A DNA stretch of 15,461 nucleotides from Gemmatimonadota bacterium (lineage in GTDB: Bacteria > Gemmatimonadota > Gemmatimonadetes > Gemmatimonadales > GWC2-71-9): assembly GCA_039586365.1 (NCBI GenBank), contig JBDHKN010000105.1, positions 1-15,461 on the forward strand, written 5' to 3'. Numbering within the stretch: position 1 is the first letter of the stretch; every line of letters begins with the position of its first letter. The translations under genes and the position numbers were made by a program. A model generated the notes under the pieces. That model was given only the letters and a program-made list of their open reading frames with translations. It did no database searches and was not told the origin of the DNA. Shown piece by piece: positions 6,036-15,461 of the stretch.

Positions 6036-6803
6036 ATGGCAGGTGAGCTCGTGAGATGGGGACTCGATGGCCGGATCGCCCTCGTTACGGGGGGTTCGAG
6101 GGGCATCGGGAAGGCCATTGCACGCCGCCTCGCGGAGGAAGGGTGCGACGTGGCCGTCAACTTCCATCGGAGCCACGTTGAGGCTGACGAGGTCGCAGCG
6201 TGGGTGAGGGAAAGGGGCCGGAGGGGCGTCGCGGTCCAGGCCGACGTGGCCGACCCTGGGGCGGTCGAGACGATGCGAGAGGGCGTCCTCCGGGAGCTCG
6301 GGAGGGTGGACATCCTCGTGAACAACGCGGGGATCCACCAGCACCTGAGGAGCTGGGAGCTTACGGCGGAGGACTGGGACCGGGTCATCGACGTCAACCT
6401 CACCGGTGCCTACCTGGTGTCGAGGGCCTTCGCGCCCGACATGGTCGAGGCCGGCTGGGGGAGGATCATCAACATCAGCTCGATCATCGCCGACCTGGGG
6501 ACCGACCACGAGGCGCACTACGCCGCATCGAAGGCCGGGATGCACGGGCTCACCAAGTCCCTCGCCCTCGAGCTCTCCCCCAATGGCGTCATGGTCAACG
6601 CCGTCGCGCCCGGCTACATCGCAACGGACATGACCGCGGGCGCTACCGAGGAGGAGCTGGAGGAGGCGATGAGGAACATCCCCCTGGGTCGGTTGGGCGA
6701 CCCGTCGGAGATCGCCTCCGTGGTGGCCTACCTGGCCTCCGACGACGCGTCCTACGTCACGGGTCAGGTCCTCCACGTCAATGGGGGGCAGGGCCTGTAC
6801 TAG
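6036..6803 (+). CDS. Short-chain dehydrogenase/reductase, 3-oxoacyl-ACP reductase (FabG)-like
   Basis: TGGSRGIG, NNAG, catalytic Ser and YAASK, PGYIATDM, TGQVLHVNGG; ATG 6036 chosen as start. Substrate cannot be determined from sequence. Confidence 0.9.
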   Translation: MAGELVRWGLDGRIALVTGGSRGIGKAIARRLAEEGCDVAVNFHRSHVEADEVAAWVRERGRRGVAVQADVADPGAVETMREGVLRELGRVDILVNNAGIHQHLRSWELTAEDWDRVIDVNLTGAYLVSRAFAPDMVEAGWGRIINISSIIADLGTDHEAHYAASKAGMHGLTKSLALELSPNGVMVNAVAPGYIATDMTAGATEEELEEAMRNIPLGRLGDPSEIASVVAYLASDDASYVTGQVLHVNGGQGLY

Positions 6804-6910
6804 CCGCAGGAGCTGTGGCCGCAGACCCTGCAAAGGGCGCAGCCCTCACCGTGGGCGAGGGGTGCACCGCAGTCGGGGCAGGTATCCAAAAGGGCGGGCG
6901 CAGCTTCCAT
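6800..6910 (-). CDS. 36-aa Cys-rich zinc-ribbon microprotein (not in the ORF track)
   Basis: Hand translation: MEAAPALLDTCPDCGAPLAHGEGCALCRVCGHSSCG*. Six Cys, all TGC codons; its stop overlaps the convergent SDR stop (CTAG 6800-6803). Confidence 0.75.
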   Translation of the reverse strand: MEAAPALLDTCPDCGAPLAHGEGCALCRVCGHSSCG

Positions 6911-7040
6911 GTAAAGACCCGTTTATTCCCTAGGGCACCGCACCTTTAATCCCTTCACTGGGGGGGTGAGTGAAAGTCCCTCGGGAACCCCTTCCTTATA
7001 AGGGAGCGATATATTTATATCGAGGATGTCCGCGACTGAG

Positions 7041-7080
7041 AGAAAGATTTATATCCTCAAACTTACAGATATTATTGGTT
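7041..7080 (+). promoter_or_regulatory. Archaeal BRE/TATA promoter, module A
   Basis: Purine-rich agaaaga followed by TTTATA (7048-7053); the downstream sequence aligns with the module B promoter. Confidence 0.65.
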
Positions 7081-7241
7081 GAGGCGCATTCCGCAATGGT
7101 AGCGTGCCCGTCCCGCTTGCCCCCGGTCTCGTACCGGGCGAAGGGTGTCGATTCTTCCGAGTCGATTTCGAGCGAAGCAGAGCGTAGCTGCGTCCCTTCA
7201 CGCATTACAATATGCGATCGGGCAACGTGTGTTGCGCCTTC
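7081..7241 (+). ncRNA. Candidate structured RNA motif, copy A (5' leader or small RNA; unknown family)
   Basis: 47/58 nt identical to 7800-7857 without gaps. Closing stem 7081-7088/7233-7240; hairpin 7122-7138; stems 7140-7145/7194-7199 and 7105-7110/7219-7224. Confidence 0.65.
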
Positions 7242-7447
7242 GGTGTTCCGAAAGTGCAAGAGATGTCTGTGGGATTCTGTTCGGTTGAGTTAGGTTCCGT
7301 CGTAAAGCTACCGGTCATTGGCGATGATGGGTTCCCTGGTGGACCCCCACAGGTTCTTCAAGTTCCACAGTTGGAGCATCCTGGAACAGCTCAAGCCAGG
7401 ATGCTAGATATGGGTTCAGGATCAAGAAATTGAAAAGGAGGTGTCAG

Positions 7448-7600
7448 ATGTTCGATATAGCATTCGGGTTCTTCTGCTTCGGCTTCGTGGCCGGAGCGCT
7501 CGTCACCGATTTCATGTACAGGATCTTCGTCAAGAAGTCCAGTGATGAGTCCAAAGACGGGAGCGACGAGGACGAGCGGTTCTGGGCTCGAATCGCGTAA
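7448..7600 (+). CDS. 50-aa single-pass membrane microprotein (not in the ORF track)
   Basis: MFDIAFGFFCFGFVAGALVTDFMYRIFVKKSSDESKDGSDEDERFWARIA*. Strong SD AAGGAGGTG at 7435-7443; GC3-rich codons like host genes. Confidence 0.75.
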   Translation: MFDIAFGFFCFGFVAGALVTDFMYRIFVKKSSDESKDGSDEDERFWARIA

Positions 7601-7604
7601 CCGG

Positions 7605-7694
7605 ACCCGCAAGGGCGCGTCTTGTGACGACGTCCGCGGGTAATAGGATCCTCAGGTGGGACCGCCACACGGTCGCGTACCGTCCCGCCCTGAG
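7605..7694 (+). terminator. Two hairpins directly 3' of the 50-aa ORF (3'-end/stability elements)
   Basis: ACCCGC/GCGGGT (7605-7610/7636-7641) with inner CGTC-TTGT-GACG; CTCAGGTGGGAC/GTCCCGCCCTGAG (7651-7662/7682-7694). No clear U-tract. Confidence 0.35.
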
Positions 7695-7759
7695 CCCCCT
7701 GAGTCGACCCTAGATTATATCAGTATAAATTACTTTATCCGAATAATTCACTCGTAATA

Positions 7760-7799
7760 GTAACATTTATATTCACAAACATACAATATATAATGAACA
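7760..7799 (+). promoter_or_regulatory. Archaeal TATA promoter, module B
   Basis: TTTATA at 7766-7771, 34 nt before the RNA motif (33 nt in copy A); atttatattcacaaacataca versus atttatatcctcaaacttaca in A. Confidence 0.65.
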
Positions 7800-7955
7800 G
7801 AGGCGCTTTCCGAAATGGTAGCGTGTCCGTCCTGCAAGATCCCGGCGTCGTGCCGGGTAAACGGGTCTGGTGGCAAAGGATTCTTAGCGAGCAGCGACTT
7901 TGACTCGCCCCGTACCACCGAGCTTGCACACAACGGTAGGCTCGGAACCGCCTTC
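7800..7955 (+). ncRNA. Candidate structured RNA motif, copy B (leader of the SPFH operon; unknown family)
   Basis: Homologous to copy A. Closing stem GAGGCG/CGCCTT (7800-7805/7949-7954); hairpin 7841-7857; stem 7861-7865/7909-7913; 10-bp hairpin 7918-7945. Confidence 0.65.
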
Positions 7956-8117
7956 TAAGTATCAGAAAAGGTAACGAGAGATGCTTGGAACATTAACATT
8001 GGGATTTGGGGCATTGGGCAACAAGATCCTTCAAGGCGTGCCCATAAGCGGACCTGATGAAACAGGATCCGGCCCTGATTTCGTATCGTACTCACTTTAA
8101 GCAAGGAGCGAGAGAAG

Positions 8118-8345
8118 ATGGCAGCAATCTTGGGAATGTTCGTGATAGGAATCGTGATCGGAGCAGTCGCGACGTACCTGTTCAGCTGGACCTTCGGTGC
8201 CAGCCTCGTGGACGCCGCCGGCAAGTCCCAGGCCAGGGTGGCCGAGGCGGAGAACAAGCGCCTGACGACCCAGGTCGAGAAGCTGGAGGCGGAGCTCAGC
8301 CGCGCCCTCCAGAGCATCGAGGAGCTGCGCGAGGATAAGGGGTGA
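8118..8345 (+). CDS. Small protein with N-terminal TM helix and C-terminal coiled coil
   Basis: ILGMFVIGIVIGAVATYLF, then heptad-like ENKRLTTQVEKLEAELSRALQSIEELR. SD AAGGAG 8103-8108; GTGA overlap with the next gene. Confidence 0.8.
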   Translation: MAAILGMFVIGIVIGAVATYLFSWTFGASLVDAAGKSQARVAEAENKRLTTQVEKLEAELSRALQSIEELREDKG

Positions 8346-9289
8346 AGGAATTGGAGATTCAGCAGAAGAGACTGGCAATATTCGTGGGCTTTCTAATAAT
8401 TGTGATCGTAATCGTGGCGCTACTGGTCGCCTCAATCGAGGTCGTGCCTGCAGGTTACAAGGGCGTCATCGTGAACTCGCCCGACGGGCCCAGCGAGGAG
8501 GAGATCCCCGAGGGCTGGAACGTCAGGGCGAAGTACATCTTCGCTGACATCGAGCACGTGGAGTGGCGTACCCAGAAGATGAGCTTCGTGGGCGCCGACA
8601 CCGCTGGCGACAACGTCGGCAGCATCGTAGTGTCCTCCAAGGACAACATCCAGGTGACCATGGACTTCTCGGTCATCTACCACATCGAGCCGGACAAGGT
8701 CTCGGAGCTGATCATCGACAACGGCATGGACTACCAGAGCCGGATCATCAACCCGATAGCTAGGTCCGAGCCCCGCAACATCGGGGCCAAGTACCTCGCG
8801 ATAGAGATCCGCGGCGAGATGAGGGACGAGGTGGAGAAGGCCATCGCCGAGAACATAGCGAGGGAGCTGGCCAAGAAGCACATCATCGTGGAGAGGTTCA
8901 CCCTCCAGGACATCCGGTTGCCGGCCAAGCTGGAGGAAGCCATCGAGCAGAAGAAGGTGGCGGAGCAGAACGTGCTCACCCAGCAGTACAACCTGGCGGC
9001 CGAGCAGTACGTGGCCAACAAGACGATAGTGAGGATGGAGGCCACAGCGGCCGCCATCGTCATCAACGCCACGGCCGCCGCGAACGCGACCGTCATACGG
9101 GCCCACGGCCAGGCCGAGGCCATCGGCATCATCATGGAGTACCTCAACTCCACCGCCGACAACGAGACCCGGGAATACCTCCAGTGGGTCTACCTCCAGG
9201 CGCTGACCGACCCGAACACGAGCATCCAGTACGTGATCATACCCTCGGAGGGCGGCGTGCCGGTCCTCCTCGAGGTGCAGCAACAGTAG
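8342..9289 (+). CDS. SPFH/band-7 protein, prohibitin-like
   Basis: N-terminal TM, VPAGYKGVI, SKD..QVTMDFSVIYHI, LQDIRLP..LEEAIEQKKVAEQ, Ala-rich coiled coil (A.GQAEA). Confidence 0.88.
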   Translation: MKELEIQQKRLAIFVGFLIIVIVIVALLVASIEVVPAGYKGVIVNSPDGPSEEEIPEGWNVRAKYIFADIEHVEWRTQKMSFVGADTAGDNVGSIVVSSKDNIQVTMDFSVIYHIEPDKVSELIIDNGMDYQSRIINPIARSEPRNIGAKYLAIEIRGEMRDEVEKAIAENIARELAKKHIIVERFTLQDIRLPAKLEEAIEQKKVAEQNVLTQQYNLAAEQYVANKTIVRMEATAAAIVINATAAANATVIRAHGQAEAIGIIMEYLNSTADNETREYLQWVYLQALTDPNTSIQYVIIPSEGGVPVLLEVQQQ

Positions 9290-9303: not shown

Positions 9304-10071
9304 ATGTTAGTTTGGATAATCGGAATTTTCGTGGGTTTGGTAGTATTAGGACTGGTGGCCGCCTCCATCAAAATCGCCCAGGAGTACCAAAGAGGGGTGG
9401 TCTTCCACCTCGGCCGCTACGAGGCCATCAAGGGCCCGGGCCTGTTCTTCATCAATCCGATCCTGGAGAAGTCCAACCTCGTCGACATCAGGACGAGGAC
9501 GGTGGACATCGAGCCCCAGGAGGCCATCACAAAAGACAGCGTGACCGTGCGGGTCAACGCGGTGCTCTACTACAAGATCACCGACCCGAAGAAGGCGGTC
9601 ATCGCCGTGGCAAACTACAGGGCCGCCATCAACCAGGCCGCGCTGACGACCCTGAGGAACATCATCGGTCAGAACGAGCTCGACGACCTGCTCCGAGAGC
9701 GGGACCGCATCAACGATACCCTCGAGGAGATCATCGACAAGGTATCCGACCCCTGGGGCATCCTGGTCGAGATGGTCGAGATCAAGGCCGTTGAGATCCC
9801 CGAGGGCATGCAGAGGGCCATGGCGAGGGAGGCCGAGGCCCAGAGGGAGAAGCGAGCCAGGCTGATCAAGGCGGAGGCCGAGGAGCAGGCCTCAGTTTTG
9901 CTGTCCCAGGCCTCCAAGGAGATCTCCGAGAACCCAGCAGCTCTGGAGCTCAGGCGGATGCAGATGATCTCCGAGGTTGGCGCGGAGCAGAACACGACGA
10001 CGATCATCCTGATCCCATCCGACTTCGTGATGCTAGCCAAGGCCCTCAGCCAGAAATTCGCGGAGGAGTAG
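9304..10071 (+). CDS. SPFH/band-7 protein, stomatin/slipin-like
   Basis: EYQRGVVFHLGR..KGPGLFFINP, ITKDSVTVRVNAVLYY, TTLRNIIGQ.ELDDLL.ERD.IN, AMAREAEAQREKRA, NPAALELR; ATG 9304 used. Confidence 0.93.
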   Translation: MLVWIIGIFVGLVVLGLVAASIKIAQEYQRGVVFHLGRYEAIKGPGLFFINPILEKSNLVDIRTRTVDIEPQEAITKDSVTVRVNAVLYYKITDPKKAVIAVANYRAAINQAALTTLRNIIGQNELDDLLRERDRINDTLEEIIDKVSDPWGILVEMVEIKAVEIPEGMQRAMAREAEAQREKRARLIKAEAEEQASVLLSQASKEISENPAALELRRMQMISEVGAEQNTTTIILIPSDFVMLAKALSQKFAEE

Positions 10072-10153
10072 GGCCATTCCTATGAATAGGTCGACGCTCA
10101 AGAGGTGAGAGACAGAAGCTTCCGATAACGCCAAGGTAGAAGGGGGCACGGGA

Positions 10154-10370
10154 CCCGGGGGTGGCCCGTCTTTTCCTCCCCACGGGCCATCCCCGGGATT
10201 ATATCTCCCTCCGGAAAGGGTCCCGTCCCCCGAACACCGTCAAGATGGCATTCTCATGTGAGGGGGCTCGCAGCCTGGGGACGGTCCTTTTTAGGGGGTT
10301 AGGGGGGCCGTCTCCAGGCTATTTCTTTACAATGGGCGGGGGTCCTCCGGGCTCCCGCCGCTTCTTTTCT
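10154..10370 (+). terminator. Cluster of long hairpins after the SPFH operon; the last two are followed by U-rich tracts
   Basis: 16-bp stem 10154-10169/10182-10197; 20-bp stem 10272-10291/10301-10320 then atttcttt; 11-bp stem 10335-10345/10349-10359 then cttcttttct. All contain G-U pairs on the + strand. Confidence 0.5.
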
Positions 10371-10661
10371 TCTATCTACGAATAAGAGGATTATCGGAAT
10401 CCATCCGGCTTCCTTACCAGCTCGCCCTCCAAATCCTTGGCCGAGTCCCACCTGATGGTTTTATATTTACCTTACTATTTCCATATCAAGTTTAATCATT
10501 AGTATTACTATTTTGATAGTCAACTACATTAATAGTATGACGATCATCAGCAAAGGTCGGATCCTATGATAAGGAGTTCCTGTGCCAGTTTAATACCTTT
10601 TAATTATCAGGACTGTCCACAAAACCCACTAAATAAAATAATATATCACCGACCAAGATGC

Positions 10662-11024
10662 TCATTCGAAGGTTTCATCATGGTCGTGGGCGCATTTCGC
10701 GCGATACCTGTCCCTCTGATCGAAGAAGGTCACGTCGGCATACCCGGCATGGACCCTTGCCGAATGGGGGATGCCCGCGGGGATGTAGTATCGGTCCCCC
10801 TTGTTGAAGGTGTGCTCAACCCCATCTATGGTCAGCTCCAGCCTCCCCTCCACGACGATCGCGAACTGACCCTCATGACTGTGCTCGGGTAGCTCGGCGT
10901 CCTCACTGAATTCCATGAACAGGATCTGATGACCGTCAGCCTGGGAGAGATAGGCCTTTAGCCCGCTGAGAGGGATGTCGGCCTCCGGCAGCTTCTTGAC
11001 GGGTTCTGGAAATATCTCCTCCAT
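10662..11024 (-). CDS. Cupin_2 domain protein
   Basis: LPEHSHEGQFAIVVEGRLELTIDG and KGDRYYIPAGIPHSA cupin motifs. Confidence 0.9.
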   Translation of the reverse strand: MEEIFPEPVKKLPEADIPLSGLKAYLSQADGHQILFMEFSEDAELPEHSHEGQFAIVVEGRLELTIDGVEHTFNKGDRYYIPAGIPHSARVHAGYADVTFFDQRDRYRAKCAHDHDETFE

Positions 11025-11188
11025 CTGATCAACCGAAACCCTATTGGGACTGACCTAGAATACCTTTGCCCATCCTGATTGCCAGACCATGGTGAGAGCT
11101 ATAATAGGATTTCATGCTGGTTGTGGGAATTCTCGATTATCAAACTAAAATGGGAATATATAAATATTTGAACCCCCATTCATGAATT

Positions 11189-12433
11189 GTGGTTCATAAA
11201 ATTGTTACGAGGAACATATCCAGACAAATCGAGGCCAACCCAGGATGGTCTCTTCTCTATGGAAGGAGGAAGGTGGGCAAGACATTCCTTATCGAGAATT
11301 TCGTGCCCCATGATAACTACTTCTCCGTCCGTGTGGACCGAAGCATCTCTGCGAGAGGATTTGCCATAGACGGGTTGGAGGACCTCAGGACCTTCTCGAG
11401 GGTTGCATCGGAGCTTCTTAGGAATGACAAGACAGTGGTCATCGACGAGTTCCAGAGGTTGCCGATGTTCGTTCTGGAGGACCTTGCGTCAGTTCATCCT
11501 AGCGGCAGACTCATCCTCACAGGCTCGAGCATGCGGGTGGTTGACAGGCTTACCGGGAGGAACTCCCCGTTGCTGGGCTTGCTAAGACCGTTCAGGATAG
11601 GCCTCGTGTCGCCCTCGGACCTGCTGCTCTCCTTGCGAGAGGACATGACTGCCGAGGAGGCCGTGTCCTTGGCACCGCTCCTCAGGGATCCATGGACGAT
11701 ACCCTTTCACAGGTCCGGCAGCCTCCTCGAGGATGTCGTTGCCATGTTGCCCAACATCGTCCCTGGGCTCGTCGGGGAGATATTCACCGAGGACGAGAGG
11801 GAGTTGACCCGAACCTATTCGTCGATCCTCTCCCAGATTGGCTCGGGCACCGCTGATCACCACCGGATCGCCGACACGCTGCACAGTCGTGGTATCATCA
11901 AGTCTGGCTCATCATCCCATGTGATCCCATATATGAGGAACATGGTGGAGATGGGGTTGCTGGAGCGTACCAGGATATTCAGGAGGAAGAAGTACGTCTA
12001 CAGCATACCCTCCCTTCCCATCCGTATGTACTACTACTTGGATTCTCGCTACGGAATCTCCGACAGGCTGGTCAGCTACAGGGAGGTAGCCCCCGCGGCC
12101 GAGGGTCTCCTGAGGACCGGCATCGAGGAGTTCGTCTTTGACCTCATGGCCGAGGTCGTCGGAGGGCGGAAGGAGTTGCTCAAGGACCCGGACCGAGAAC
12201 TGGACGTGCTGGTCACGGTCCGGAACCGACCTGCTCTGGTGGGGGAGGTCAAATGGGGGAAGGTGACGAGATCCGATGTCGGTAAATTCCTCGCGAAGGT
12301 GGAGAACATGAGGTGCCGCAAGGTCCTGGTCAGCCGCTCCACCCTTGACACAGACGAGGTCGAGGTCTTGACCCCTGACGGGTTGATGGAAGAGGCAAGC
12401 AGGTACTCAGAGACGATGCTTAAATCCCGGTGA
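11189..12433 (+). CDS. Archaeal AAA+ ATPase with C-terminal PD-(D/E)xK-like domain (ATPase_2/DUF234-type)
   Basis: Walker A YGRRKVGKT, Walker B VVIDEFQ, sensor LILTGSS, probable winged-helix region, C-terminal ELDV...GEVKW. TATATAAA 11157-11164 precedes the GTG start. Confidence 0.88.
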   Translation: MVHKIVTRNISRQIEANPGWSLLYGRRKVGKTFLIENFVPHDNYFSVRVDRSISARGFAIDGLEDLRTFSRVASELLRNDKTVVIDEFQRLPMFVLEDLASVHPSGRLILTGSSMRVVDRLTGRNSPLLGLLRPFRIGLVSPSDLLLSLREDMTAEEAVSLAPLLRDPWTIPFHRSGSLLEDVVAMLPNIVPGLVGEIFTEDERELTRTYSSILSQIGSGTADHHRIADTLHSRGIIKSGSSSHVIPYMRNMVEMGLLERTRIFRRKKYVYSIPSLPIRMYYYLDSRYGISDRLVSYREVAPAAEGLLRTGIEEFVFDLMAEVVGGRKELLKDPDRELDVLVTVRNRPALVGEVKWGKVTRSDVGKFLAKVENMRCRKVLVSRSTLDTDEVEVLTPDGLMEEASRYSETMLKSR

Positions 12434-12528
12434 ACTCCCGAGTCTTTCGGGTATGAATTGCGCTCCTAAATTGAGGATTTTCGATTCAACGATTCGAAAA
12501 ACAATGGTATATTTACAGATCGAATGTT

Positions 12529-13428
12529 CTAGAAAAGGAGCCTACTGCCTTGATACAATTCCAAGAGGAACTCGATGAACGGCCTCAGGTTCCCTTCAAC
12601 CTGGGCCTCCCGAAGGACATCATAGTATCGGTTCTTTTTAGCGTTGGGGATGTTGACCATCGGTAGACCGTTCCTGTGAAGGATGAAGTTCATGAGCAGC
12701 CTTCCCACCCTTCCGTTCCCGTCGACGAATGGATGGACCGTCTCGAAGCCCACATGAAAGTAGATCGCCAGCACCAGAGGGTGGACCCTATCCCTGTTCT
12801 TCGCATACCAAGAGAGCAGAGAGGCGATGTCCTTGGGAACATCGTCAGGCGATGGGGGGAGCCATTCCACCCCACGGATGTAGACCTGGACGGACCTGAA
12901 GGCACCGACCTGGTCCTCCATGTCAGCGTCCATGGTGTCCTTGACAACGAGACGATGAAGCTCCAGGATGAGCTCCCTCGAAACATCACCGTCGAACTCG
13001 AGGATGTGGTCGAAGGCTCGCTTGTGGTTCAGGACCTCGTTGACCTCCCTGAGGCTCTTGCCAGGTGTGATGCCGTCGAAGAGGAGGCTCGCCGTCTCCT
13101 GCAGGGTCAGGGTGTTGCCCTCGATCGCAGTGGAGTCGTTGGTGAACATGGATACGAATGATTCGTACCTGTTCTCCCTGGTAGAGGATGGTTGATCGGA
13201 GTAGGCCTTCTGCAGTTCCTCCAAGAAACCCTGCTCCTCCATGCTTAGCAGAGCCTCGAGGACGCCCAGCTCAATATCCGCCTCTCTCTCAGCATCCCTG
13301 AGTGCCTCCGGGCTCAGGTCGGTTCCGAGGTACTTCCGTACCTTCTTTACATTATCGCCCTCGCGAACGGAAACGGTCCTGTAATAGTAGGTCCTACCGT
13401 TCCTTTTCTGCTTCTCGGTATATGCCAC
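12529..13428 (-). CDS. Fic-domain protein (class II, N-terminal inhibitory helix) with an extra N-terminal basic beta-domain
   Basis: Canonical HPFVDGNGRVGR catalytic motif; inhibitory motif STAIEGN; N-terminal KRNGRTYYYRTVSVREGDNVKKVRKYLG. Confidence 0.92.
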   Translation of the reverse strand: MAYTEKQKRNGRTYYYRTVSVREGDNVKKVRKYLGTDLSPEALRDAEREADIELGVLEALLSMEEQGFLEELQKAYSDQPSSTRENRYESFVSMFTNDSTAIEGNTLTLQETASLLFDGITPGKSLREVNEVLNHKRAFDHILEFDGDVSRELILELHRLVVKDTMDADMEDQVGAFRSVQVYIRGVEWLPPSPDDVPKDIASLLSWYAKNRDRVHPLVLAIYFHVGFETVHPFVDGNGRVGRLLMNFILHRNGLPMVNIPNAKKNRYYDVLREAQVEGNLRPFIEFLLELYQGSRLLF

Positions 13429-13435
13429 ATAAATA

Positions 13436-13482
13436 TGTACGTCTACATCATATATAGATTTGTCGATTGATGTAGACGTACA
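13436..13482 (-). promoter_or_regulatory. Perfect 15-bp inverted repeat bracketing the Fic TATA box
   Basis: TGTACGTCTACATCA (13436-13450) / TGATGTAGACGTACA (13468-13482); the 17-nt spacer contains TATATA (13451-13456). Confidence 0.7.
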
Positions 13483-13600
13483 GTTACTTCGAGCACGGAC
13501 GGGAATCTTGAGGCGTGATGGATATCATCCGTTAATAAGTACCATCGGTATGCCTTCGGGCATAGTACTGGGCCTTAATGCCTCAGAATCAATAGCTCGA

Positions 13601-13646
13601 ATGTTAAAAAATAATTAACATCCATAAATGTTAATATTTTATTAAC
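13601..13646. promoter_or_regulatory. Tandem GTTAA-N7-TTAAC palindromic operators
   Basis: ATGTTAA-N7-TTAACAT (13601-13621) and GTTAA-N7-TTAAC (13630-13646), directly before ORF 13649. Confidence 0.55.
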
Positions 13647-13648
13647 TT

Positions 13649-13852
13649 GTGATGAAGGCGGAGGCCTACTACGACAGGATGGCCGGACCTGGGCATGAGA
13701 GGTTCAAGGACGACATGGTCCAGATCGTGGAGAGGACCAAGAGGACGGGTAAAAGCGTTGATCATTCCGAGGTCCAGAGACTGGTGCTCATGAGGGACCC
13801 TCGGAAGCGTGCAATCATGATGGACCTGTGCGCTTCGGTCATACCTGCATGA
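13649..13852 (+). CDS. Small hypothetical protein (67 aa; start GTG 13649 or ATG 13652)
   Basis: Abrupt switch from an AT-rich promoter to GC3-rich codons typical of host genes; no family recognised. Confidence 0.6.
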   Translation: MMKAEAYYDRMAGPGHERFKDDMVQIVERTKRTGKSVDHSEVQRLVLMRDPRKRAIMMDLCASVIPA

Positions 13853-14022
13853 GGTCGATGTTGCAGTAGGTTAATCATGGAGCATCGATTGATAGGATGA
13901 CCGTTATCGGAGTTATCAACCCCATGAACAATTAGGATCATCGGCTGATTGCATGAGAAGTAGAATTTCGTCGAATGATGCACATAGAAAACACCATTGA
14001 AGTGACATTTCACCTCGTATTT

Positions 14023-14089
14023 TGTATATTATGATATACATATAGGAAGGTATTTATACCATCAAGATGTACATAAACACGTGTACATC
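14023..14089 (+). promoter_or_regulatory. TATA promoter with flanking palindromes for the DUF4143 ATPase
   Basis: TGTATAT-N4-ATATACA (14023-14040), GGTAT-TT-ATACC containing TTTATA (14049-14060), GATGTACA-N8-TGTACATC (14066-14089) overlapping the GTG start. Confidence 0.55.
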
Positions 14090-15289
14090 GAGCGAGATAT
14101 CAGACGGCGGTTCTTAAGGGCAGCTGATAACTATGGGATCGTCGCTCTCGTTGGTGCCCGACAGACGGGAAAGACGACCTTCCTCAAGCATCACATGAGA
14201 CAGAACGATGCCAAGTACGTCCTATTCGATGATCTCGTGGCTAGGACACAGTTCAATGACGAGTTCAAGCAGTTCGAATTAGAGTACGTATCCGGCGTCG
14301 ATCTCACGGTCCTTGACGAGGCCCAGTATGGAGACGAAGCGGGCACCAAGCTGAAATACCTTGTTGATAGTGGGAACAGGCTCTGGGTAACCTCTTCCTC
14401 CGAGCTCTTGCTGGGAAGGGATGTGTTGTCCTACCTCGTCGGAAGGGTGAAGGTCCTCCGACTGCACACCTTCAACTTCCCCGAGTTCCTCAGGGCCAAG
14501 GGACACAAGGTATTACCAGCTGTGGCCAGGAGCGGCCTCGTTACGGAGCACATCATCTACGGAGGATACCCGAGAGTGGTCCTGTCGGAGGACACGGAAT
14601 TCAAGCAGGATTACCTGAAGGACCTCCTCGAGACGCTGTTGCTCAAGGATGTCGCGAGGACCTTCGGGCTGAGGAACATGGTGGGTCTCGAGAAGTTAGT
14701 AAGGTATCTGGCCCTGTCTCCCGGCGACCTTCTGAACAAGGAGAAAGCATCGTCGAACCTGGAGATGAACAGGCATACCCTGACCCAGTACCTCGATGCG
14801 ATGGAGAAGAGCTACATCATCCATCGGGTCGGCCCCTTCTTTACCAACAAGCGCAAGGAGATGGTCAAACAGGAGCGGGTCTACTTCCTCGATACGGGCC
14901 TCCGCAACGCCGTCGTCAACGATTTCAGAGCCCAGATCGACGGCCATGTCTTCGAGAACTATGTGCTGGTGGAACTGTTGAAGATGGGATACAGGCCCAA
15001 GTATTGGAGGACGAGGGCGAAGGCCGAGGTGGATTTCGTCATCGAGGAGGAGGACGTTGTCCCGATCGAGGTCAAGTCACATACGAACCCTAGGAGGGTC
15101 GAGAAAGGACTTCGATCGTTCATCGAGTCGTACAAACCCGAGCGGGCCTATGTGATCGGACTGAGGGGCACATCGGGCGAGTCAGAAGTCGGCAGATGCA
15201 GAGTGGTTTTCACCGACCTCCCAGGACTCTGGGAGCATATGATGGACATCGACTTCTCAGGAACATCAGAATCTTATTCACTGGACTAG
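14081..15289 (+). CDS. AAA+ ATPase, AAA_14 + DUF4143 family, with C-terminal PD-(D/E)xK-like motif
   Basis: GARQTGKT, LDEAQ, TSSS, YLVGR, YGGYP, YFLDTGLRN, FENYV..EL, YWRT...EVDFV...PIEVKS. Confidence 0.92.
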   Translation: MYIERDIRRRFLRAADNYGIVALVGARQTGKTTFLKHHMRQNDAKYVLFDDLVARTQFNDEFKQFELEYVSGVDLTVLDEAQYGDEAGTKLKYLVDSGNRLWVTSSSELLLGRDVLSYLVGRVKVLRLHTFNFPEFLRAKGHKVLPAVARSGLVTEHIIYGGYPRVVLSEDTEFKQDYLKDLLETLLLKDVARTFGLRNMVGLEKLVRYLALSPGDLLNKEKASSNLEMNRHTLTQYLDAMEKSYIIHRVGPFFTNKRKEMVKQERVYFLDTGLRNAVVNDFRAQIDGHVFENYVLVELLKMGYRPKYWRTRAKAEVDFVIEEEDVVPIEVKSHTNPRRVEKGLRSFIESYKPERAYVIGLRGTSGESEVGRCRVVFTDLPGLWEHMMDIDFSGTSESYSLD

Positions 15290-15461
15290 CGATACGCAAA
15301 ACGGTCCTTTATTGCGTCCATGGCTCAGAACCTCTGAAGAAATCCTGCGTATAGTAAGGATTGTTGGCAGGTTTTCAGAAAATGTTGCCGATGACTAGAA
15401 GATTCGGCAGGTTCCGGGATTGTCGGTAAGTCACTTAGGTCTATGAACTGTTTAGTAAATC

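Follow-up and report, generated by a model that had tools for sequence, protein, structure and literature searches.

A candidate structured leader associated with SPFH genes and duplicated in a Thermoplasmata-like contig

The window, a 15,461-nt stretch of DNA that makes up the whole of contig C38 in assembly G000, contains two copies of a promoter followed by a candidate leader RNA. Our preferred reading, to which we assign a probability of about 0.45, is that in a small Thermoplasmata-related lineage an operon of SPFH (membrane-scaffold) genes carries this RNA as a structured 5′ leader, that the leader gates translation, and that in the window it has been duplicated and has partly decayed. 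With homologs in genomes G108 and G144, four copies are available. All four lie behind a TATA box and share one layout, in which the RNA begins at the expected start site and is followed by an SD-like AAGGU and a start codon 23–27 nt past a conserved CGCCU. The leader appears to be a so far undescribed, narrowly distributed archaeal RNA tied to SPFH genes and lying outside every Rfam family.

The duplicated unit and its contig

Assembly G000 carries a tmRNA with a bacterial-type tag. Contig C38 ranks 125th of 132 contigs by tetranucleotide distance (a noisy measure for short contigs), none of its first eight genes has a homolog in the rest of the assembly, the records matched by its proteins carry Thermoplasmata or Thermoplasmatota in their titles, and the same gene block is present in an 'uncultured Thermoplasmata archaeon' (G061) at about 60–75% protein identity for most genes. 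On the basis of composition, absent in-assembly homologs, protein matches and synteny, we conclude that the contig is archaeal (Thermoplasmata-like) and was misbinned into a bacterial genome; an archaeal reading of its TATA boxes is sound. A search of 60 relatives of G000 gave 0/60 matches and is uninformative, G000 being bacterial. Contigs C93, C108 and C83 are further composition outliers in the assembly. Elsewhere in the window, positions 1–350 hold a 12-nt tandem repeat that encodes EEEP runs in the terminal part of an acidic protein truncated by the contig end, and positions 10072–15461 form a variable island with a long AT-rich spacer, a cupin, a pair of AAA_14 ATPases (DUF4143 in one) and a Fic-domain gene; the syntenic blocks compared from relatives contain none of the island genes.

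The features of the locus are as follows.

7042..7080, + strand: promoter 1, with a purine-rich BRE-like stretch, TTTATA at 7048–7053 and an AT-rich initiator region; 33 nt before the motif
7081..7241, + strand: leader RNA copy 1, the more decayed, with P1 at 7083–7108 (CC-GCAAU-GG), a CCCGGU/ACCGGG hairpin at 7122–7138, the anchor at 7164–7173 and CGCCU at 7235–7239
7263..7433, + strand: 56-codon ORF starting 23 nt past CGCCU; doubtful, perhaps a decayed gene start
7448..7600, + strand: 50-aa single-TM protein, a probable paralog of the 8118–8345 product
7760..7799, + strand: promoter 2, with TATA box TTTATA at 7766–7771
7800..7959, + strand: leader RNA copy 2, with P1 at 7802–7827, a CCCGGC/GCCGGG hairpin at 7841–7857, the anchor at 7879–7888 and a possible 3′ hairpin with loop CCGCC at 7941–7959
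7968..7983, + strand: putative SD (AAGGU) and ATG (7981), the ATG 27 nt past CGCCU as in G108 and G144
7981..8100, + strand: 39-codon ORF, weakly constrained; a leader peptide or a remnant
8118..8345, + strand: 75-aa TM and coiled-coil protein, the conserved partner upstream of SPFH1
8342..9289, + strand: SPFH/Band 7 protein 1 (SPFH1; prohibitin/HflC-like), PF01145 E 1e-23
9304..10071, + strand: SPFH/Band 7 protein 2 (SPFH2; stomatin-like), PF01145 E 8e-41

The first-pass annotation had described 7081–7241 and 7800–7955 as homologous across some 160 nt, with 47/58 ungapped identity at the 5′ ends and the first base of TTTATA 33 and 34 nt ahead of the motif. The identity and both spacings are borne out, and archaeal TATA spacing would place the transcription starts of both leaders accordingly. 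The homology is real, with most of the resemblance in the promoter (26/35 identical between the copies) and the first 65 nt (51/65 identical, z 13.1 against shuffles) and little in the remaining 95 nt (z 2.0); past about nt 65 the copies can hardly be aligned. Promoter and 5′ part together match by blastn at E 4e-12 and 1e-11, and these two copies are the only significant ones in the 5.4-Mb assembly by blastn or profile (next best profile match E 1.4). We read the locus as a tandem duplication of a promoter–leader–small-TM unit, in which copy 2 keeps most features and copy 1 mainly the 5′ domain.

The 50-aa and 75-aa proteins are probably related (pairwise z 4.4, p 0.004), a value that hydrophobic bias may inflate. 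In L060 and L061, homologs of the 75-aa protein immediately precede SPFH1 (z 11.8 and 7.2, also by tblastn); the 75-aa protein gives a LapA-domain hint below the cut-off and falls into unnamed clusters only, at 0.90, in the protein atlas. The 56-codon ORF has no Pfam match and at the DNA level weakly resembles the beginning of the SPFH gene of G144 (uncorrected p 0.02). For the 39-codon ORF, sediment run X1 keeps the stop, with seven of the ten changed codons examined being non-synonymous (three more differences, at 8030–8033, were left out). SPFH1 relatives are found in records labelled Thermoplasmata or Euryarchaeota, and SPFH2 orthologs lie directly behind the leader in G108 and G144 (67 and 66% identity).

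Some further features were seen near the unit. Extra TATA-like words occur upstream of each main promoter (6990–7035 and 7705–7760), with a similar tandem arrangement in G108, and may be second promoters or regulator sites. A GC-rich hairpin after the 50-aa ORF (7650–7695) folds within chance (z −0.28). On the minus strand, 6800–6910 encodes an unlisted 36-aa micro-ORF with two CxxC motifs, which is found at the same site in G108, G126 and G061 (50–54% identity) and resembles the Zn ribbon at the C-terminus encoded by the nrdJ-like gene nearby.

Homologs and conservation

Copy 1 with its promoter gave seven matches in 401 genomes of the phylum, the sole real one being in G108 (E 2e-5), whose promoter is 26/35 identical to promoter 1. 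The G144 homolog was exposed by a search with the SPFH2 protein in nine genomes of the order. When the G108 RNA was searched against the 401 genomes, 13 matches were returned, full length in G108 and G144 only; model R2 did not pick up the short ones (best E 0.09). With a model of the four copies together, high scores came from exactly these two of 12 genomes of the class; a third match (E 0.04) was rejected as apparent coding DNA. Model R2 found two real and two weak matches in 151 genomes, the weak ones again in apparent coding DNA, and model R1 found none in 151 genomes of another class, a search made without a positive control. A short pattern matched in 26 of the 401 genomes; the 28 distinct other loci had neither promoter nor model score and were discarded (two places had no locus), as were 57 exact matches in metagenome contigs, none of which extended past the pattern or had a promoter. 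The DNA examined for the SPFH1 relatives L060–L068 contains no such leader.

Gene order in G108 runs from conserved core genes through an SDR gene, the Zn-ribbon micro-gene, promoter and RNA to an SPFH2-like gene, with nrdJ further on; in G144 it is promoter, RNA, SPFH and nrdJ. In both genomes the promoter–RNA cassette occupies the same chromosomal position, following SDR and the Zn-ribbon micro-gene; the site is present without the cassette in G061 and in G126, a close relative of G144 (97% in nrdJ). The TATA box is the same in G108 and G144, and their SPFH ATG lies 27 nt past CGCCU, equal to copy 2 (23 nt for copy 1). An SPFH gene follows the leader directly in these two genomes and further down the same strand for the two window copies. 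This association at a fixed start-codon distance, as read from the four loci, points to a leader acting in cis rather than to a free small RNA or a MITE. The first-pass view of an archaeal promoter-proximal RNA ahead of membrane genes is thereby strengthened by the homologs, whereas its riboswitch label and shared multi-branched 160-nt fold are not. In both genomes the leader is followed by a truncated SPFH gene (L221, G144:C529, 3609–3997; L220, G108:C23, 9555–10124). In G144 the truncated gene is an SPFH2-like N-terminus fused to the last ~20 residues of SPFH1, the two meeting at a TDP word that they share; this fusion implies a gene order other than that of the window; an assembly artefact is also possible.

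A model built from G108 and G144 only, without the promoter (R3), placed copies 2 and 1 at the top of 30 window matches. Copy 2 scored 28.5 bits over its full length (E 1e-8) and copy 1 scored 16.9 bits over its 5′ 68 nt (E 6.5e-5), the E-values being rough; the next window match reached 10 bits. Homology to the outgroup RNAs thus has support beyond the promoter. Unlike this structure-aware model, a sequence-only profile of G108 and G144 did not find the window copies (best window E 0.095). Copy 1 (7052–7295) also appears in a second sediment run, X2, on one low-depth contig with five differences, none in the promoter; by our reading of the local fold four are unpaired and one breaks a pair. 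The ACAA of copy 1 is UCAA in the X2 strain.

Between G108 and G144 the RNA is 147/164 identical (89.6%), compared with 212/297 (71.4%) in the opening 300 nt of the neighboring SPFH gene (Fisher p 4e-6) and 17/28 at its fourfold sites. The 3′ part of nrdJ is 88.6% identical, equal to the RNA, and the 3′ 100 nt of the RNA are themselves about 88% identical. Because RNA identity is 90% against 71% for SPFH, selection on the leader is suggested, and a non-coding leader conserved like nrdJ is probably constrained; a recent exchange limited to the leader may also account for the identity. The window is more distant. Its RNA 5′ domain is 58–60% identical to that of G108, inside the range of other intergenic stretches (36–63%), and for this reason we consider the window copies to be diverged paralogs or decaying. 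Between the window copies and the outgroups, the promoter (66–74%) and the first 65 nt of the RNA are best conserved, and AGGCG/CGCCU is invariant in 4/4 copies while the surrounding 100 nt barely align.

Helices and covariation

Four elements are common to all four RNAs: (i) a GGCGC/GUGYC hairpin (P1) with a GNRAU loop, (ii) a CCGG hairpin at nt 43–57, (iii) a GAYYYYKAGC anchor and (iv) a 3′ CGCCU. P1 consists of GGCGC paired with GUGYC, a 3 × 4 internal loop and CC-GNRAU-GG; its pairs are kept at 100% in 4/4 copies; one G-U is invariant, and one pair changes from G-C to G-U. Its pair probabilities are 0.6–0.8, and lower in three of the four when other sequence ends are used. The 3′ CGCCU present in all four can pair with the 5′ end instead of P1.

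Several first-pass structural claims can be revisited in this frame. The CCCGGY/RCCGGG hairpin with its U-A to C-G change is indeed present in both window copies, and the closing AGGCG/CGCCU can pair in each. GATTCTT of copy 1 is not, however, a homologous position, as the four-way anchor aligns GAUUUCGAGC (7164) with GAUUCUUAGC (7879); the AAGGG/CCCTT and ACGGG/CCCGT stems, offered as equivalents, are one register apart and compete with other helices; and the 3′ ACAA-loop hairpins said to be common to both copies are located at non-equivalent places.

For G108 and G144, extra helices are predicted: a GACA/UGUC-closed junction, a UKAGC-loop hairpin and a 7-bp hairpin with a CCGCC loop. The latter two recur in copy 2 at identical spacing (5/6 and 6/7 pairs, two double changes each) and are not kept in copy 1. 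In copy 2 the shared fold lies >20 kcal/mol above the copy's own minimum, and its own 10-bp ACAA hairpin competes. Folding energies are unremarkable for the two window copies (z −2.1 and −1.3) and ordinary over 165 nt of all four (z −0.7 to −1.7).

The covariation evidence that the first-pass annotation had called suggestive divides according to how it is obtained. In a 68-column alignment 90% of cells pair and five pairs change on both sides, with 3/500 shuffles as good, a result that is overstated since the structure was picked from the same sequences; a second fitted alignment beats the shuffles (0/500), and fitted alignments lean to their structure. In the held-out comparison, by contrast, copy 2 keeps 8/14 changed pairs (p 0.07; 6/8, p 0.036, for two helices chosen post hoc) and copy 1 keeps 5/15 (p 0.78). 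The copies total four, about two to three of them independent. A shared fold of the leader is thus suggested by the sequences. Neither a riboswitch nor a shared 160-nt multi-branched structure is established, because the evidence comprises four copies, all from three genomes within a single small class, there is no metabolic gene context, held-out covariation is non-significant and copy 1 lacks the 3′ helices.

Relation to known RNAs and proposed mechanism

As the first-pass annotation anticipated, searches of copy 1, copy 2 and G108 against Rfam 15, with the whole window or short pieces, gave nothing at E ≤ 10 over the RNA body; the lone hit, porB (E 3.1), falls on the AT-rich promoter. The lysine riboswitch (RF00168) has a model length of 182 nt, near the ~165 nt of the leader, and its first word is similar to the AGAGGYGC of copy 2, G108 and G144. 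The genes behind the leader are not lysine-related, and the 3′ P1 strand of the lysine riboswitch has no counterpart in the leader; only the first word is common. The RF00168 model (30-bit cut-off) exceeded the cut-off in 0/5 genomes, with no match at the leader loci even at E ≤ 10, compared with 4/14 known genomes in the control. The AGUA/GAAAGG loop E, GCCGAA, YUGUCA and GGAGYGCUA words are absent from 4/4 leaders and present in two to three of three true lysine loci. With model and signature words both failing, lysine-riboswitch identity was dropped. ARAGORN found no tRNA or tmRNA in the window, nor on C38 with introns allowed, and there is no T-arm word; the RUGAUGA C box of C/D guide RNAs and the CUGAUGA hammerhead core are missing from 4/4 leaders. 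Possible likenesses with SRP Alu, HDV-like ribozymes, SAM-I, c-di-GMP-I and vault RNA were also dropped, as none matched in Rfam. Literature searches did not list the motif, nor any paper treating SPFH, riboswitch, motif and upstream together; large supplementary motif lists outside Rfam may contain it.

The nearest functional parallels are three. Pyrococcus abyssi ncRNAs derived from 5′UTRs, such as sRkB and sRk28, are described in PMC3124441 as lineage-restricted, conserved, riboswitch-like leaders with no proven ligand. They resemble the SPFH leader in being lineage-restricted and conserved, but have K-turns and belong to another lineage and other genes, and the SPFH leader has no C box. 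The fluoride riboswitch (crcB) is, according to PMC8241225 and PMC11549558, the one natural archaeal riboswitch that has been tested. It too lies in an archaeal 5′ leader and presumably controls how genes for membrane proteins are translated; its genes are different, and the SPFH leader lacks an Rfam match. The fluoride motif is about half as long as the SPFH leader RNA. Bacterial RNA thermometers and SD-masking leaders likewise have alternative folds proposed to mask or expose the SD of a gene related to stress, but for the SPFH leader there is no Rfam match and temperature opening is predicted for G144 only.

In our preferred reading of a translation-gating leader, the 5′ GGCG would either fold onto GUGYC (P1) or pair with the 3′ CGCCU, in mutually exclusive states; both pairings are invariant across the four copies. 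In the P1 state, the 3′ end would fold on itself or onto the SD region, giving low translation; in the long-range GGCG/CGCCU state, the SD region would be more open. Physical stress (temperature, ions) or an RNA-binding protein might shift the balance. The two states are within 3 kcal/mol in three of four copies, and forcing the long-range state raises predicted SD-region access in 3/4 (0.16 to 0.45, 0.63 to 0.90 and 0.49 to 0.87; these values have no null control). Access in copy 2 is 0.94 in both states, and the SD of copy 1 does not open at any temperature tried. Only G144 opens on warming, its predicted access rising from 0.41 at 37°C to 0.80 at 60°C; the other three do not. SPFH proteins scaffold membranes and have links to envelope stress, and a physical or protein trigger therefore seems more natural than a metabolite. 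A more elaborate version, which we consider decidedly unlikely, is a pseudoknotted leader, an undescribed archaeal riboswitch or stress sensor, whose CCGCC loop and 5′ GGCG would pair on a membrane-stress signal (ion or osmolyte), thereby turning on the SPFH cage proteins, the paralogous copies being tuned to different operon genes.

Conservation could instead operate at the DNA level, with the promoter and downstream palindromic operator sites (GGCGC..GYGCC, CCGG-N..-CCGG) serving a transcription factor, the RNA folding as palindromes do and the remaining leader drifting. Inverted repeats yield compensatory-looking changes in DNA too, and the concentration of window–outgroup conservation in the promoter and first 65 nt, the ordinary folding z-scores and the non-significant overall held-out covariation all fit. 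The high G108–G144 identity across the 3′ 100 nt speaks against it, however, as do the several C-to-U or A-to-G changes that keep G-U pairs, tolerated by RNA only, and the preserved CGCCU and SD spacing; we hold an operator to be unlikely, though worth serious consideration. A stable small RNA, with its own promoter or cut from the leader and either trans-acting or bound by the SPFH cage while downstream genes are passengers, would explain why the RNA stays 90% identical although the SPFH gene behind it is truncated in both genomes. Closure of 5′ to 3′ ends is possible for such an RNA, and leader-derived stable RNAs are reported from Pyrococcus (PMC3124441). No copy has an oligo-U terminator (a run of five U), though, the distance to SD and ATG is fixed in 4/4, the same kind of gene is always downstream and antisense matches in five related genomes are none better than E 0.03, which makes this reading distinctly unlikely.

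The size, position and two competing folds of the leader also fit a metabolite- or ion-binding riboswitch of an undescribed class, as do its conserved, unpaired-looking words (GNRAU loop, UKAGC and CCGCC loop) and the GUAGAGGCGC start of G108 and G144, resembling the lysine riboswitch 5′ end. Aptamers are, however, strongly conserved in sequence (PMC8241225), and the middle of these RNAs is unalignable between window and outgroups. Together with a range of three genomes, regulated genes that suggest no ligand, and the unmatched lysine model with 6/7 of its signature words absent from the RNA body, this renders a riboswitch quite improbable. The cassette's presence in G144 and absence at the same site in G126 and G061 might recall a small mobile element (MITE-like) or viral remnant. 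The dispersed copies or shared flanking repeats looked for in G108 and G144 were not found; instead there is one copy per genome at one site, always with its own promoter and with unlike flanks. Three patterns gave 0 matches in viral contigs, which contain no SPFH2 relative either, and blastn against phage and plasmid sets returned just short matches at E 0.7. A mobile origin is largely refuted and very improbable.

If the leader does gate translation of its SPFH operon, its narrow range and uncultured host limit the reach of the finding. The RNA is short enough for in vitro probing and archaeal reporter work. Any validated structured archaeal leader extends a very short list, and leader control of this kind would give a first handle on post-transcriptional regulation of SPFH scaffolds in uncultured sediment archaea.
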